Below, piece by piece: positions 20,942 through 28,079 of a stretch of 28,079 nt of DNA. This stretch comes from a virus. Its lineage: Duplodnaviria > Caudoviricetes. The notes under the pieces are model-generated. The model saw only the letters and a list, made by a program, of their open reading frames with translations, did no database searches and was not told the origin of the DNA. The stretch is from IMG/VR virus record IMGVR_UViG_3300025805_000202, positions 1-28,079 of that record; one strand, given 5' to 3'. The position numbers were made by a program, and so were the translations under genes. Every line of letters starts with the position of its first letter. The stretch's first letter is position 1.

Positions 20942-21469
20942 TCACGACGATGTTTCTCCGATCCAGATCATGCTCGGGTTGGGCTCCTCCTCTCCGGTGA
21001 CGGCATAGTGCATCAGCAAATGGGCGTTGAGGTCGCAACGGCGCTTGAAATTCAATCCCTTCTTGGGGATTTGTTCGGCGTCGGCGCGACATCGCACCGT
21101 CAGCACACCGCTACCGTCATTGTTGGGCCGCATATCGACGACGTAGGCCGGGGAGTAAATATTGAGTTTGTGGGTGCGAATCACGTTGGAAGATTTGGCC
21201 ACCTCAAGGCTGAGCAGGTACTCGGTTTTTGGGCGGCCGCCGAAGAGGCCGGGGGTTTTTGCCAGCTTTGGCAAAAAGTCCGAACCCTCTGAAAAACCGT
21301 AGGTTTCGATTCGGTCTTTGATCCAATTGGCAAACATTTTGCCGACCCCCAGGTGCTTGTGCAGCGTCCTGGCATCGACCAGGGTCTGCTCGACCCCGGC
21401 CAAGGTGCCGGTGGTGGTGGGGATGAGGGTGGTACTGCTGGGGGTACTGCTGGGGATCAAGGCGCTCAT
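20942..21469 (-). CDS. AntA/AntB-family antirepressor with an unrecognised C-terminal region
   Basis: VDARTLHKHLGVGKMFANWIKDRIETYGFSEGSDF...GGRPKTEYLLSLEVAK; AGGAGG RBS. Confidence 0.8.
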   Translation of the reverse strand: MSALIPSSTPSSTTLIPTTTGTLAGVEQTLVDARTLHKHLGVGKMFANWIKDRIETYGFSEGSDFLPKLAKTPGLFGGRPKTEYLLSLEVAKSSNVIRTHKLNIYSPAYVVDMRPNNDGSGVLTVRCRADAEQIPKKGLNFKRRCDLNAHLLMHYAVTGEEEPNPSMIWIGETSS

Positions 21470-21508
21470 GGCGGCCTCCTGGGTGGGTTCCCCCCGCTGC
21501 TGCGCGGG

Positions 21509-21583
21509 TGGTGGGGGTGGGGCGGGTTAGCAGACCGGACCAGGTACCGGCAGCCCCGAGGGGCTCCCACCCAACCCCCACCA
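21509..21583 (-). ncRNA. C4 target structure (c4-a1b1-like) in the antirepressor leader
   Basis: Outer stem 21583-21566/21526-21509, hairpin AGCCC-CUCG-GGGCU, hairpin CCGG-UACCUGGU-CCGG, unpaired CUGCUAA. Confidence 0.75.
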
Positions 21584-21627
21584 TAGGGGGCCGAGCGTGC
21601 ACACCAGGCCCACCCCTGGCGGGGCGG

Positions 21628-21702
21628 GCGCAAAAAAAACCGCTGGCGCGGCTGGTGCGCCTGGTATCCGGGCTGCTGAACCCGTGCCTGCATGGGGCAG
21701 GC
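21628..21702 (-). ncRNA. C4-like antisense RNA
   Basis: Hairpins GCCUGC/GCAGGC, CGGGU-UCAGCA-GCCCG and CCGC-GCCA-GCGG-U8; linker ACCAGG; complementary to the downstream target. Confidence 0.75.
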
Positions 21703-21735
21703 GTGGGGATTGATGCCCGGATGGGGGGGGGCGTG

Positions 21736-22158
21736 TCAGTCCCACAACCTAGGCGCCACGACCTGTCGGGGTGTGCCTCGGTTGCGGATTTCGCGGATCC
21801 TCCGCTCGGTCAGCCCATACCGCAGGGCCAGGTCGCGGTTGATCTCGCCCACCGCAGCGCGGATTTGCGCGTCGCGGGCGGCGAGCAGGGCGGCGTGGCA
21901 ACGGGGGATGGGGAACCGAGCCTCTCCGCCTGCGAGGTGCGCCAGTTTTTGGGCCACGTCGTGCCCCACGGCGACGCTGAGCCAGTGATCTGGGGCTGGG
22001 CGGCGGGCCGGAACGTAAATTTCAGTGCCGCCCAAGAGGCGGATGACCCGTTCGGCGTCGGACCAACCCAGCCCCTCGACCAGAGCCTGAGCCGAGTCCG
22101 GTAGGGCATTGCTCTCGCGCAGGATGAGGGCGAAGTCGTGTGTGCGCGCGACGTTCAC
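21736..22158 (-). CDS. mor: Mor/C family transcription activator
   Basis: LP...LVE.LG......LGGTEIYVP...IPRC..AL...RD..I...LALRYGLTERRIREI; GTGA coupling to gemA. Confidence 0.85.
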   Translation of the reverse strand: MNVARTHDFALILRESNALPDSAQALVEGLGWSDAERVIRLLGGTEIYVPARRPAPDHWLSVAVGHDVAQKLAHLAGGEARFPIPRCHAALLAARDAQIRAAVGEINRDLALRYGLTERRIREIRNRGTPRQVVAPRLWD

Positions 22159-22613
22159 GGCTGCGTCCCTTCTGTTTTTCGATCCTTGGGGCCCAAGGCA
22201 ACCCCCTTGCGGCGCTGGTGGTACACCAATGCTGCGACAATCCGGCGCAGTTGATCCGGTGTACACCACTGCACCCGTTCGACCCCGAACATCTTCTTGG
22301 CCATGCCGTGGGCGTAGGGCCAGCCATACCCCAGGCTGGTCAACTGCGCCTCGATTTTGTCGATCGGCCGCTGCCGGGCGCGAGCGGGGTCGGGCTTGGC
22401 GGCCCGGTGCGGGTTGGTCTGGTGGGGCGGTAGGCCGCAGCGCTCCATGTAGACCAGCACCTGGGCGGCGCCGATGATCGTCAAGTGTTTGGCGCTGCGC
22501 ACCCCGGCCACCTTGTGCAGGGCGTCGCGGTAGGTGTCGTCGTCCCACCCCAGCTCTTTTTTGCCGATGTGGATCCTGGCCAGCAGGGGGCGGGTGATGG
22601 TGTCGGCGGTCAT
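22155..22613 (-). CDS. gemA: GemA / Mu gp16 (DUF1018)
   Basis: LARIHIGKKELGWDDDTYRDAL..VAGVRSAKHL. Confidence 0.88.
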   Translation of the reverse strand: MTADTITRPLLARIHIGKKELGWDDDTYRDALHKVAGVRSAKHLTIIGAAQVLVYMERCGLPPHQTNPHRAAKPDPARARQRPIDKIEAQLTSLGYGWPYAHGMAKKMFGVERVQWCTPDQLRRIVAALVYHQRRKGVALGPKDRKTEGTQP

Positions 22614-22655
22614 GATGCCCTGGCCAGCGCCAGCGCCGCCTCATGCGGATTGTTG

Positions 22656-22790
22656 TCAGCCATGCCTCGCCCCCCGGCACTCGGCGCAACGGTGGTCTGC
22701 GTCGTGCTTGGGCCTACGCACCAGGGCCAAGGCCAAGACAACGCCCAAACTGCCCAGGGTGATCCCGGCCACAAAAGCAACAGCGATCAT
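22656..22790 (-). CDS. Small membrane protein (44 aa; absent from ORF track)
   Basis: AAGGAG RBS; MIAVAFVAGITLGSLGVVLALALVRRPKHDADHRCAECRGARHG. Confidence 0.55.
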   Translation of the reverse strand: MIAVAFVAGITLGSLGVVLALALVRRPKHDADHRCAECRGARHG

Positions 22791-22886
22791 CGTTTTTCTC
22801 CTTCTCCGGTGAGCGCTTCATCGCCGCGCCCTCCGGGCTACCAAGCAATCGCGCCGAGGCGGCGCTCCTACACGTTGATGTCATTC

Positions 22887-22957
22887 GGCTGCTCGTCGGA
22901 CCCGGCGCACCACCGCCGGATGACCACCCCCCGCCTGGGCGGCGGAGGGGGTTTCGC
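22887..22957 (-). ncRNA. Type II hammerhead ribozyme (core CCGACGA, U4C variant)
   Basis: GC-GAAA-stem III-GUC-stem I (8 bp, loop GUGGUG)-CCGACGA-GC-AGCC; predicted cleavage between 22922 and 22921. Confidence 0.75.
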
Positions 22958-23120
22958 TTCCCCCCACAGGGGGGGCCATTACGTGGCCAGCGGCAGAGGC
23001 TCGCGAAAGGAGGAGCGCCCCCTGCTGCGGGTGTTGTTTCGATCCCATCACCGCCCGCTGGACGGGGCGCGGCCATTCCTGGCCCCCCCTAGGAGCCAAG
23101 GACCCCCCGCGCTGGGGGCG

Positions 23121-23648
23121 TTACGCGGCCTCGGCCTCGAAGGGGATGATCACGAAGTCCTCCACCCCGGTGACGATCTTGATGCCCGCCACCCCGGCCA
23201 CCGCCTCGGGTTCGTTCAGAATCGCCTCTTTGTTCGGTTCGCTTTTGGTGCGCACAAAACGCCCCAAACCCAGCCGCTCCAGGGTTTCCACCACGGCGTC
23301 GGCCCCGGTGATGCGGCACGAAGGGGGGCGCTGACGCCAGGCGATTTCGCCGGTCACCAAGTTGGCGGTTTTGCTCTTGCCGTTGCGGGTCAGCTCGTCG
23401 CGGTGGGCCTCGGCCCAGGTCTGCACCCCCTTTTGCAGGGCGGCCACCTCCTCCCCCAAGGCGTCGAGCTGGGGCTGATACTGCTGGGTCAAGGCGGCGA
23501 TCTGGTCGTTGAGCTGCGCCTGCAACCGCATCTGCTCACGGTTGAGGTCGCCAATCTGCCGCACAGCGGCGGCGGCTTGGTCCCGATTGGCCGGGACGGT
23601 CACCGCCACGGCGGGGGCTTTGATGCGGGTAGGGCTACGGGGGGGCAT
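23121..23648 (-). CDS. gam: Host-nuclease inhibitor Gam
   Basis: VQTWAEAHRDELT..GKSKTANLVTGEIAWRQRPPS...RFVRTK.EPNKEAIL; AGGAGG RBS. Confidence 0.95.
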   Translation of the reverse strand: MPPRSPTRIKAPAVAVTVPANRDQAAAAVRQIGDLNREQMRLQAQLNDQIAALTQQYQPQLDALGEEVAALQKGVQTWAEAHRDELTRNGKSKTANLVTGEIAWRQRPPSCRITGADAVVETLERLGLGRFVRTKSEPNKEAILNEPEAVAGVAGIKIVTGVEDFVIIPFEAEAA

Positions 23649-23662
23649 GGTGGCCTCCTGGG

Positions 23663-23827
23663 TTAATCCCGGCGCAGGGCGCCGGTGTAGGCGATCCAGC
23701 GATACCCCTGTTGGGACACCGCTCGGGTATGGCGCCGGTGACGTCGGTGACGCCGGGCGCTCTGGAGCAACCGCAGGGTGGCCACCAACAGCGCCACCCC
23801 GACAGCGAATAACACGACTTCAAACAT
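23663..23827 (-). CDS. Small membrane protein with a basic RRH-repeat tail (54 aa)
   Basis: MFEVVLFAVGVALLVATLRLLQSARRHRRHRRH...; overlaps the upstream stop; AAGGGGG RBS. Confidence 0.6.
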   Translation of the reverse strand: MFEVVLFAVGVALLVATLRLLQSARRHRRHRRHTRAVSQQGYRWIAYTGALRRD

Positions 23828-25587: not shown

Positions 25588-27576
25588 TTATTGGTTGGCG
25601 CCCGTTGAACGGGTCTTGAGAGGTGCTGTTTTGGCGAGGTGCCGATCCAGCATCCTGTTGACGTTTTCTTGGAAGATTCGCTGCCGCTGGGGGTCAGACG
25701 AGGGGCCGACGACATCCCCGTTCGCCACCCGCTTGAGCGGCTGCCCAAAATTGGGGGCGACCAAGCCGGGGGCTGGGATGGACGCAGGGGTGTTGGGGGC
25801 GGGCGTTAAGGCTGCCGCCTCCAGGGCGCCCATCCGTTTGTCGGCCTGGGCCGCAACCTTCTGGGCTTTCTGGCTGCGGGCTTTGTTCTTGGCCCACTCC
25901 CGCCCTGCCTCGGTATCGCCGAAGCCCACCCCGGCGTAGTGCTGCACTTTGCCGATCACCTGGCCGTCCAAGGTGGTCACCGTGACTGCTGCCAGCAGAT
26001 CGGCGGGGTCGTAGTACGCCACCACCTTCTGCCCCTTGCGGTCGGCCATGGCTTCGTTCCAATAGCGATGGGCGCCGTGGGGCCCCTTGCCCGCTTGCAG
26101 CTTGATCTCCCCCCGCTCCCGGCTGGCGGTCACCACCTCGGGCATCAGCAGCAACATTTCCCGCTGCTCCAAGGTCAGCACACGGACGGTCGCGTCCTTG
26201 AAACTTTCGGCAAAGGCTTCGTCGTAGCTCTTCACCCCGGCGCAAATGTCGGTACGCCGGTTGGGCCGGGCGTTAAAACGCACCACTTCTTGCGCCACCA
26301 CCTGCGCGAATTCTGCGTAGGGAATAGCGGTGGCTTTGCTGAAGCCCCGGTCTAAAAATTGTGGGTGTTTGGCCACCAGATCGTGCAATCCGCCAATACC
26401 GAAACTGCGTTCAATCGGTTTGGCGCCGGGGTTCGATTTGGTCATATCGGGCAACGTAAAACGGGGGGTAATCCCCACCAGTTGCAGCAACCCCAGGGGG
26501 TCGTCTTCCCTGTTTTTAAAGCGGTGGCGGTTGCCCGACCGCCCGGTCATCGCCTTGTTGGCGGCGACCACGGTGTTGTCGATCCACGCATCGGTAGGGG
26601 TGCAAATGGCGGTCAGGTCGTAGGTGGCCAGGCGGAAAAGATCGGTGTTTTCGGTTTTGGCCAGCCGGTAGGCCAGAATCTTGTTGCTGCGCAGATCGGC
26701 CCAGAACCAACCGGTGCTGGTGTTCAGCACCTCGCCGTCGGGCCACTTCACCCACAGCTTGTCGAACTTCAGCCCGTCGCCCACCACCGCCTCGCCCGCT
26801 GCGTACATCGACCGATCCCGCTTCTGCGGGGGATACAGGAGAGCCAACGCCACCTCGCCCTCCCGCCAATACACACGGGTGGACTCCTTAATGTCGCTCT
26901 GCACCCGTTTGTGAAAGGTGCGCAGCGCGGGCAAGTCGCCCCACCCGTGCTGCTTGGCCGCTTCGTCCGTGCGGCGGTAACATTCGGCGACGGTGTCCCC
27001 GTCGTGGGTTAAATACAGGGCCAGAAAGTAATCCCACGCAGCCGGGGGAATTTCTTTACGCTCGTGCTGCACGCTCCAGCCGGGGATCATCAGCGCCGCC
27101 CAATCGCTTTTGGGGTGCTCGCGCACTCCTGGGTGTTGGCTGGTGCCGTAATACCAACCGCGTATCGTGGCGGCAGGTATGGCCCATTCCTGGGCCACTG
27201 TTTCCAGCGCCTCGCGCACGGGAATTTTCGCGTCGAGCAGGTCGCGCAATTTAAAAAGGCACATCGCTTTGTTCTGGCCGATGTCGCGGTGTTTTTGCGA
27301 TTTGGTCCACGCCCACCGCCAAAGGTGGGAAGAGCGTTCGCTGTCGGGGGTGGGGTTTTCTGGGGATGGGGGCGTTGGGGCGGCAGGGAGCAACTGTTTC
27401 AACGCGGAGGAATACCCCCCCGAGGCTATCGATTCGATGTTGTACTGCTTAGCGATGCCGCCATTCATGCGGACTTCCCTGGAGGGCCAATCCCTCGCCC
27501 TCCTGGCTACCGCCTGCTTTGATACCCCGGCGGCTGCGGCGATTTCTGCCAGGCTGAACCATTCGACGGGTGTCAT
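25588..27576 (-). CDS. Transposase A (MuA-like DDE transposase)
   Basis: N-terminal EWFSLAEI HTH; acidic triad GDG / IDN / KPIERSF; C-terminal YYDPADL; ATGA coupling to ner. Confidence 0.95.
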   Translation of the reverse strand: MTPVEWFSLAEIAAAAGVSKQAVARRARDWPSREVRMNGGIAKQYNIESIASGGYSSALKQLLPAAPTPPSPENPTPDSERSSHLWRWAWTKSQKHRDIGQNKAMCLFKLRDLLDAKIPVREALETVAQEWAIPAATIRGWYYGTSQHPGVREHPKSDWAALMIPGWSVQHERKEIPPAAWDYFLALYLTHDGDTVAECYRRTDEAAKQHGWGDLPALRTFHKRVQSDIKESTRVYWREGEVALALLYPPQKRDRSMYAAGEAVVGDGLKFDKLWVKWPDGEVLNTSTGWFWADLRSNKILAYRLAKTENTDLFRLATYDLTAICTPTDAWIDNTVVAANKAMTGRSGNRHRFKNREDDPLGLLQLVGITPRFTLPDMTKSNPGAKPIERSFGIGGLHDLVAKHPQFLDRGFSKATAIPYAEFAQVVAQEVVRFNARPNRRTDICAGVKSYDEAFAESFKDATVRVLTLEQREMLLLMPEVVTASRERGEIKLQAGKGPHGAHRYWNEAMADRKGQKVVAYYDPADLLAAVTVTTLDGQVIGKVQHYAGVGFGDTEAGREWAKNKARSQKAQKVAAQADKRMGALEAAALTPAPNTPASIPAPGLVAPNFGQPLKRVANGDVVGPSSDPQRQRIFQENVNRMLDRHLAKTAPLKTRSTGANQ

Positions 27577-28049
27577 TTCCGCCCCTCGTCCTGCCACATT
27601 GGCCCTGCACCCGTGAGTAGCCAGTTGAGGTTGACGCCTTGGGCTGCAATAGAGGCCAAGGCGTCGGCCCCAGGTTTCCTTCTCCCGGCGATATAACTAG
27701 CCAGGGTCCGAATGGGGATGGCCGTGCGGTCCGCAAACTCGATTCTGGTCATGCCAAGCTGTGCAATGGCCGTCTTGAGACGCACCCCTAGGCCGCTCTG
27801 TCCCGACGCAGTTGAATACCTGCTTGGCCAGATCGACGCCGGATCGACGCCGAGGGCTTCGGCGATGATCTGCTGCCCTTTCGGCCACGGGCGGTCGAGT
27901 GCCCCCTTAAGGACGCCGGGTTTGTACCCTTGCTCGGCCGACAACCTGCGCAAGCTCCAGCCGCGCAGACGCAGCGCGCAGACAATCTCGGCCCTGTGCC
28001 AGTCGTTGGCGCAGGTGGTGGTGCCAGATGTGGATGGTTTTTGGCTCAT
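27573..28049 (-). CDS. ner: Ner-family regulator fused to an XRE/Cro-C1 HTH
   Basis: DWHRAEIVCALRLRGWSLRRLS...PWPKGQQIIAEALGVDPASIWPSRY, then LGVRLK...FADRTAIP..TL..Y..G.RKP...VNLNWLLTGAGPM; start uncertain. Confidence 0.85.
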   Translation of the reverse strand: MSQKPSTSGTTTCANDWHRAEIVCALRLRGWSLRRLSAEQGYKPGVLKGALDRPWPKGQQIIAEALGVDPASIWPSRYSTASGQSGLGVRLKTAIAQLGMTRIEFADRTAIPIRTLASYIAGRRKPGADALASIAAQGVNLNWLLTGAGPMWQDEGRK

Positions 28050-28061
28050 GACCGGAGGATA

Positions 28062-28077
28062 GGTCCACAAGTGGACC
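28062..28077. promoter_or_regulatory. Inverted repeat, putative operator upstream of ner
   Basis: GGTCCAC-AA-GTGGACC, 12 bp upstream of ATG 28049. Confidence 0.55.
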
Positions 28078-28079
28078 AT

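Follow-up and report, generated by a model that had tools for sequence, protein, structure and literature searches.

The locus and its gene neighbourhood

The DNA analysed here (the window) is a whole virus record from IMG/VR, 28,079 nucleotides long. Pfam matches, found in 9 of the 13 ORFs scanned, identify minus-strand genes for a ner-like HTH protein, MuA, MuB, DUF551, gam, gemA, mor, antA and lysozyme, and judged by this gene content the record is that of a Mu-like phage. The same matches confirm the early-operon setting (ner-like HTH, MuA, MuB, gam, gemA and mor) in which the original prediction had placed a hammerhead ribozyme with a non-canonical core. In the order in which the minus strand is read, the features around the ribozyme are the following.

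23121 to 23648, minus strand: gam, the upstream gene (PF07352, E = 1.2e-39)
23023 to 23117, minus strand: Proteo-phage-1 RNA motif (RF03044, 43.2 bits against a gathering score of 42, just above the cut-off)
22960 to 22974, minus strand: C6/G6 hairpin just 5′ of the ribozyme, predicted by folding to hold a G run that would otherwise invade stem III
22849 to 22871, minus strand: palindrome, presumably of the GTAG REP-like type, 16 nt 3′ of the ribozyme; from sequence, with a ~32-nt stretch found in many other contigs
22656 to 22790, minus strand: putative gene, a 44-aa ORF with a hydrophobic N-terminus, the first ORF 3′ of the cut, with a purine-rich ribosome site upstream
22155 to 22613, minus strand: gemA (PF06252, E = 1.7e-22)
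21736 to 22158, minus strand: mor, of the middle-operon activator family (PF08765, E = 8.1e-09), with a probable GTG start overlapping the gemA stop
21638 to 21653, minus strand: terminator-like hairpin and U run after mor, from a consensus scan only; a possible 3′ end of the released RNA

A consensus scan gave no terminator-like site on the minus strand between gam and mor, and no sigma-70-like promoter was found within 21300-23700. By its position, as had been proposed, cleavage at the hammerhead would part gam and the genes upstream of it from the small ORF, gemA and mor.

Between the gam stop and the hammerhead lies the Proteo-phage-1 motif, for which a pseudoknot is possible and which occupies a place of enrichment for self-cleaving ribozymes. 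One idea is that it is a putative second ribozyme, which would make the hammerhead redundant. The motif reached the cut-off in 0 of 20 related loci; across 50 related records there were 0 matches, a count made uninformative by the control, which likewise gave 0. No literature was found under the name Proteo-phage-1. On the other side of the ribozyme, we take the palindrome at 22871-22849 to be a GTAG-type REP-like element, a label that partly follows PMC2817692 and PMC3686654. In the same runs, the stretch at 22849-22871 reaches a summed contig depth of up to 314, against 11, and a similar palindrome lies 3′ of a hammerhead in another locus (L303, near 407-429). Since the palindrome is common to many other contigs, it fits a host REP element.

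Several further observations concern the rest of the record. A C4 antisense RNA match at 21504-21588 on the minus strand (65.1 bits) lies after mor and directly upstream of the AntA antirepressor gene (20942-21469, minus strand), and the two together resemble an immunity cassette of P1/P4 type, here carried by a Mu-like phage; at 22354-22410 on the plus strand there is also a weak c4-a1b1 match (18.9 bits), below the cut-off. The ner-like ORF (27573-28079, minus strand) is a single 168-aa frame with two HTH domains, HTH_35 and HTH_3, the latter of XRE type. Compared over 22700-22869, a related contig of lower depth is longer by ~127 letters at 22812-22815 and has 6 nt inserted in the small ORF; these differences suggest that the samples contain another, related element.

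Identity and fold of the hammerhead motif

The Rfam model Hammerhead_II (RF02276) matches the minus strand at 22883-22959 with 53.0 bits (E = 8.4e-10) over model positions 1-66 of 66. The gathering score of the model is 37 bits and the match is far beyond chance; in the Rfam scan of the 28-kb window, no other hammerhead match reaches the gathering score. The covariance-model check proposed with the original prediction is thereby answered in its favor, and the minus-strand sequence of 22887-22957 and its core CCGACGA read as first given. The type II register, the three stems, the 2-bp stem II and the GUC site are also borne out, by the full-length RF02276 match and by a fold in which 22 of 22 proposed pairs are standard. 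Stem I and stem III are each capped by a loop, and stem II is open and consists of the pairs G22957-C22891 and C22956-G22892. The parts of the motif are as follows.

22887 to 22957, minus strand: motif of a type II hammerhead ribozyme whose core reads CCGACGA (U4C, N7 = C), from the 53-bit RF02276 match and the fold
22923 to 22952, minus strand: stem III, 3 + 9 bp around a bulged U at 22926, with loop GCCCA, from the fold; the outermost pair is A22952-U22923
22921 to 22924, minus strand: GUC triplet (22924-22922) with the predicted cut before A22921, from sequence and Rfam register
22900 to 22921, minus strand: stem I, 8 bp from A22921-U22900, with loop GUGGUG, from the fold; the loop could pair with the 3′ tail GCC (22889-22887)
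22898, minus strand: C at core position 4 (canonical U4), from sequence; the same letter is found in L001, L010, L331 and L332

Self-cleavage would yield a 5′-OH end that begins at 22921. As read from the letters, the core keeps C3, G5, A6, G8, A9, G12, A13, A14, A15.1-U16.1 and H17. The U4 of the CUGA turn departs from the consensus, with C at 22898, at a position for which natural exceptions are documented. The C at N7 is ordinary, being found in 40 of 217 canonical copies. A 3-bp pseudoknot (GGU/GCC) could join loop I to the 3′ tail, a contact whose covariation is not readable because the search patterns fixed the tail; among 221 arms of 22 nt in the subfamily, GGUG is the most frequent loop, with 88. 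Aligned to the register of its relatives, the bulge of stem III becomes a C.U mismatch at what is usually a G-C pair, and stem III is interrupted as early in 17 of 215 canonical copies. Across an alignment of 12 sequences, 96.9% of cells are paired, with two-sided changes at 8 of 19 pairs. The closest canonical relatives (L171, L174, L211 and L142) score 51.5-58.1 bits with RF02276, a range that includes the 53 bits of the window copy, so that outside position 4 the motif is not eroded. Judged from its sequence, the element is a type II hammerhead of the subfamily common in Mu-like phages, and it belongs to the known family by every testable feature except U4.

Fold predictions vary with the transcript context. 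A fragment starting at 22965 misfolds (z = -0.8) because stem III loses its C run to the G run that lies upstream; the pair probability of stem III is 0.05 without the 5′ arm of the C6/G6 hairpin and 0.93 with it. Stems I and III form the minimum-energy fold in 3 of the 5 contexts tried. They do so for starts at 22980 or 23000, with a stem III pair probability of 0.93-0.95, and with 23-43 nt of upstream context they cost 0.4-0.5 kcal/mol of ensemble energy. With 160 nt upstream, that is, the whole spacer to gam, the minimum-energy fold lacks stem I (pair probability 0.07), and 2.7 kcal/mol is needed to restore it. Given these contrasting predictions, folding of the window hammerhead is plausible but context-dependent.

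Reality and age of the core substitution

The C at core position 4 (C4) recurs outside the window. The identical motif is present in two IMG/VR records (L001 and L010), and two JGI contigs (L331 and L332) also carry C4. Locus L281 shares its contig with L001; over 5007 positions it has 4 differences from the window, and all 4 lie outside the ribozyme. In contigs from 4 of 4 sequencing runs (depth 4-11) there is no letter but C at 22898, and contigs with a different allele at 23147 carry it as well. This check rests on contigs, and for three of the four runs there is a flag that the window DNA may come from them, so the agreement among runs is consistent with C4 and not fully independent. We regard C4 as real because other assemblies of the phage carry the same letter.

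All copies of the window phage are at least 99.9% identical, and the age of C4 therefore cannot be told from them. A Gam-based search gave 9 loci, including two near-identical copies of the window phage; in the other 7, a hammerhead at gathering score was found in L284 only, with a canonical core. None of the 9 loci belongs to a phage at intermediate distance from the window phage, so C4 is not datable.

The canonical subfamily and its setting

The frame of the subfamily, GCGAAAC...GUC...CUGANGAGCAGCC, is common. From 10 of 64 parts scanned, we estimate ~880 canonical stretches in IMG/VR, and 151 of 151 distinct canonical matches passed the energy-based fold filter applied to pattern matches. 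Among canonical copies with full 1.5-kb flanks, searched with home-made profiles, gemA lies 3′ of the ribozyme in 51 of the 69 viral ones and in 23 of the 33 genomic ones, and gam lies 5′ of it in 13 of 69 and 6 of 33, respectively. Both genes together, gam upstream and gemA downstream, are found for 10 of 69 viral and 5 of 33 genomic copies. The copies nearest to the window motif (L211, L171 and L142) stand between gam and gemA and have the core CUGACGA. Self-cleaving ribozymes are enriched near Mu-like phage genes, for a biological reason that is stated as unknown in the accessible text of PMC10085705 and PMC6765202. Because most canonical copies have gemA downstream and the link to Mu-like phages is published, the setting of the window copy is ordinary. 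Processing of polycistronic phage RNA has been proposed for such ribozymes (PMC3088659, PMC6765202, in the portions available); a role in splitting mRNA is hence a hypothesis already in print, and would not be specific to the window copy.

One record (IMGVR_UViG_3300017605_000570, loci L188-L190) has a dense array of pattern matches for type II hammerheads: up to 10 of them fall within 3.7 kb, at intervals of about 250-400 nt, with small genes in between.

Frequency and scatter of core changes

A complete scan of IMG/VR with the U4C pattern gave 15 stretches, of which 6 fold as hammerheads, corresponding to 3 of 10 distinct sequences and confirmed by Rfam. This places U4C at ~6 of some 890 IMG/VR stretches. 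A stricter metagenome scan gave 3 U4C stretches, namely two copies of the window phage and a new motif (L330, 74.6 bits). The genome sample covered 9 of 64 parts and 126 loci; it yielded 67 distinct canonical motifs that passed the filter, along with one real U4A variant (L115). Beside these 67 no U4C copy was found, the marginal L098 apart, which is without the family loop and probably a chance match.

For other core changes, IMG/VR was scanned completely: of 23 stretches with a G12 change, 2 were real variants, and of 9 with a G8 change, 1 was. There were 0 real G5 variants among 8 stretches, 0 real U4A/G variants among 1 stretch and, with a fixed 22-nt stem I arm, 0 matches to A6 variants. 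Dropped from the variant tally, besides L098, were L292, L302 and L303, which have a canonical GCGAAAC inside the match; L296, L306 and L310, in which stem III fails (L296 and L310 have a canonical start upstream); and L333, which has no stems.

Considering 15 substitution types at U4, G5, A6, G8 and G12 in IMG/VR, U4C accounts for 3 of the 6 real variant sequences. With the window phage left out because it defined the question, the excess of U4C has P = 0.04 over all substitution types and P = 0.10 over transitions only. It is suggestive, not firm, that U4C recurs somewhat more than other core changes, and such recurrence fits a tolerated, weakened allele. Altogether there are four independent U4C sequences (window, L003, L006 and L330), which makes it the commonest core change found. 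Otherwise intact type II hammerheads also carry G12A, G12U and G8U (L290, L291 and L321) and U4A (L115); the three changes of the catalytic guanosines are single copies in the same subfamily. Each of the 5 position-4 variants is nearest to canonical copies, with the next variant ranking 18th to 104th of 222, and the U4C of the window was found only in copies at 99.9% identity or more and in no diverged relative. Judging by these sequences, U4C seems to have arisen repeatedly as a single substitution that is tolerated somewhat better than other changes, and it does not look like a maintained lineage. As a separate observation, both hammerheads of L003 (1499-1567 and 2533-2600; the same in L009) are odd-cored, one with U4C and one with an extra U after A9.

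Likely effect of U4C and proposed mechanism

U4 is counted among the conserved hammerhead core in the accessible text of PMC3088659, which cites Ambros and Flores 1998 for a viroid U4C variant that is considerably weaker in vitro and keeps infectivity. In a full mutagenesis of a type III hammerhead, activity was low for every single mutant in the CUGA region (PMC9901934, in the part available), and the window copy may thus be close to dead. No cleavage assay of a phage U4C hammerhead was found in the literature searched, which lacks most subscription papers. G8 and G12 are intact in the window hammerhead. By analogy with the systems in the available text of PMC3088659 and PMC9901934, U4C likely reduces its activity, in line with the original suggestion that the change may slow or abolish cutting.

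We hold with moderate confidence that the element is an ordinary hammerhead copy in which U4C is likely a single recent substitution, one that likely leaves slow or partial cutting. Transcription of the early region would read through gam into the hammerhead, where stems I and III would fold with the aid of the upstream hairpin and the pseudoknot of loop I and tail would dock. G12 and G8 would then catalyse cleavage after GUC. The gam-side product would keep a 2′,3′-cyclic phosphate, and the downstream product would be a hairpin-capped RNA of ~1.3 kb with a 5′-OH, carrying the small ORF, gemA and mor. A 5′-hydroxylated substrate is cleaved poorly by RNase E, via its 5′ sensor (accessible text of PMC4191395), and since a 5′-OH is poor for 5′-end-dependent RNase E, the released RNA could be more stable. 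GemA is a regulator from the Mu gem operon and Mor a transcription activator (PMC9769972, in the text available). U4C would weaken the CUGA turn and make the cut slower and partial, so that more transcript would stay uncut. Gating of translation of the next ORF by cleavage was considered and is not supported, as predicted access to the next ribosome site is unchanged by the cut (5.2-7.4 kcal/mol uncut, 6.1 cut, from folding). The window phage seems to tolerate U4C, and among the copies surveyed there is no sign that it was selected. Counting against this reading are the low activity of single CUGA-region mutants elsewhere, the weak excess of U4C once the window phage is left out, the loss of stem I with 160 nt upstream and the rare mismatch or bulge in stem III.

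Alternative explanations

There are other possible explanations for the odd core. First, the copy could be effectively dead, with U4C abolishing useful cleavage and the element drifting in the phage as an early-stage relic, which we consider unlikely and still worth serious weight. The low activity of all single CUGA-region mutants elsewhere (PMC9901934, in the part available) speaks for it, as does the second irregularity, in stem III. Moreover, the existence of L290, L291 and L321 (G12A, G12U and G8U), with intact stems and in the same subfamily, means that probably inactive copies do persist. A relic is harder to reconcile with a fully paired stem I and an Rfam score on a level with those of canonical relatives. 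U4C is also the most frequent core change, with 4 independent sequences, and its viroid precedent keeps function in vivo (PMC3088659, accessible text).

Second, U4C could be a recurrent slow allele, selected because it sets the share of transcripts that are cut and thereby adjusts when, or how strongly, gemA and mor are expressed. It would have arisen at least 4 times independently in Mu-like phages, 3 of the 4 independent copies lie upstream of gemA and mor, and L003/L009 have two odd-cored hammerheads (U4C; insertion after A9). Against this, U4C is rare (~6 of some 890 stretches) and forms no clade, none was found among the 67 canonical copies of the genome sample except for one probable chance match (L098), and folding predicts no change in access to the next ribosome site on cutting. 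We judge this reading improbable. The original proposal that U4C tunes activator timing accordingly finds no support here: the change is rare and marks no lineage, and G8U, G12A and G12U also occur, as single copies, in the same subfamily.

Third, the RNA could act through its fold, with no catalysis involved: together with Proteo-phage-1, the hairpins and the REP-like palindrome it would form a structured spacer that stabilises the transcript or makes it pause. The 330-nt gam spacer is indeed packed with structured elements, but Proteo-phage-1 is absent at cut-off from all 20 related loci, and nearly all relatives have U at position 4, a sign that catalysis is under selection in the family; this explanation is very improbable. 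Finally, a sequencing or assembly error at 22898 has a next to negligible chance of being right: the copies do come from similar samples, three of four runs are possible sources and the check used contigs, not raw reads, yet L281 has C4 despite its 4 differences over 5007 positions, the contigs of all four runs are uniform at 22898, including those with the other 23147 allele, and L331 and L332 agree.

Significance and comparison with known systems

What many ribozymes beside Mu-like genes do is an open question in the accessible text of PMC10085705 and PMC6765202, and the window copy gives no answer to it. Under the preferred reading of an ordinary copy with slow or partial cutting, the modest use of the window copy is as a natural weakened allele that can be placed beside its canonical relatives in a cleavage or reporter assay. 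The survey additionally provides a rough rank of tolerated core changes in the subfamily, with U4C the commonest. The window phage is uncultured, which limits work in vivo. Were U4C after all a selected slow allele, it would be a kinetic dial on Gem/Mor expression, and natural fast and slow alleles at one locus would allow a direct test of the role of ribozymes in Mu-like early operons.

Among known systems, the window element is most like the type II hammerheads of bacteria and prophages (RF02276; Perreault et al. 2011, PMC3088659, in the portions available), with which it shares the permutation, the 2-bp stem II, the GUC site, the potential for a pseudoknot between loop I and the 3′ tail, and an intergenic position in a prophage. 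It differs from RF02276 hammerheads in the C at position 4 and in the one-base bulge or mismatch in stem III and, unlike type II hammerheads that occur in clusters, it is the single Rfam hammerhead match in its 28-kb record. The viroid U4C hammerhead cited in the accessible text of PMC3088659 is a natural hammerhead with the same core substitution, in a viroid context and without the pseudoknotted type II scaffold; its activity has been measured, whereas the window motif is known from sequence. The neighbourhood is that of the ribozymes of Mu-like phages described in the available text of PMC10085705 and PMC6765202, from which the window differs by the adjacent Proteo-phage-1 motif and the REP-like palindrome.
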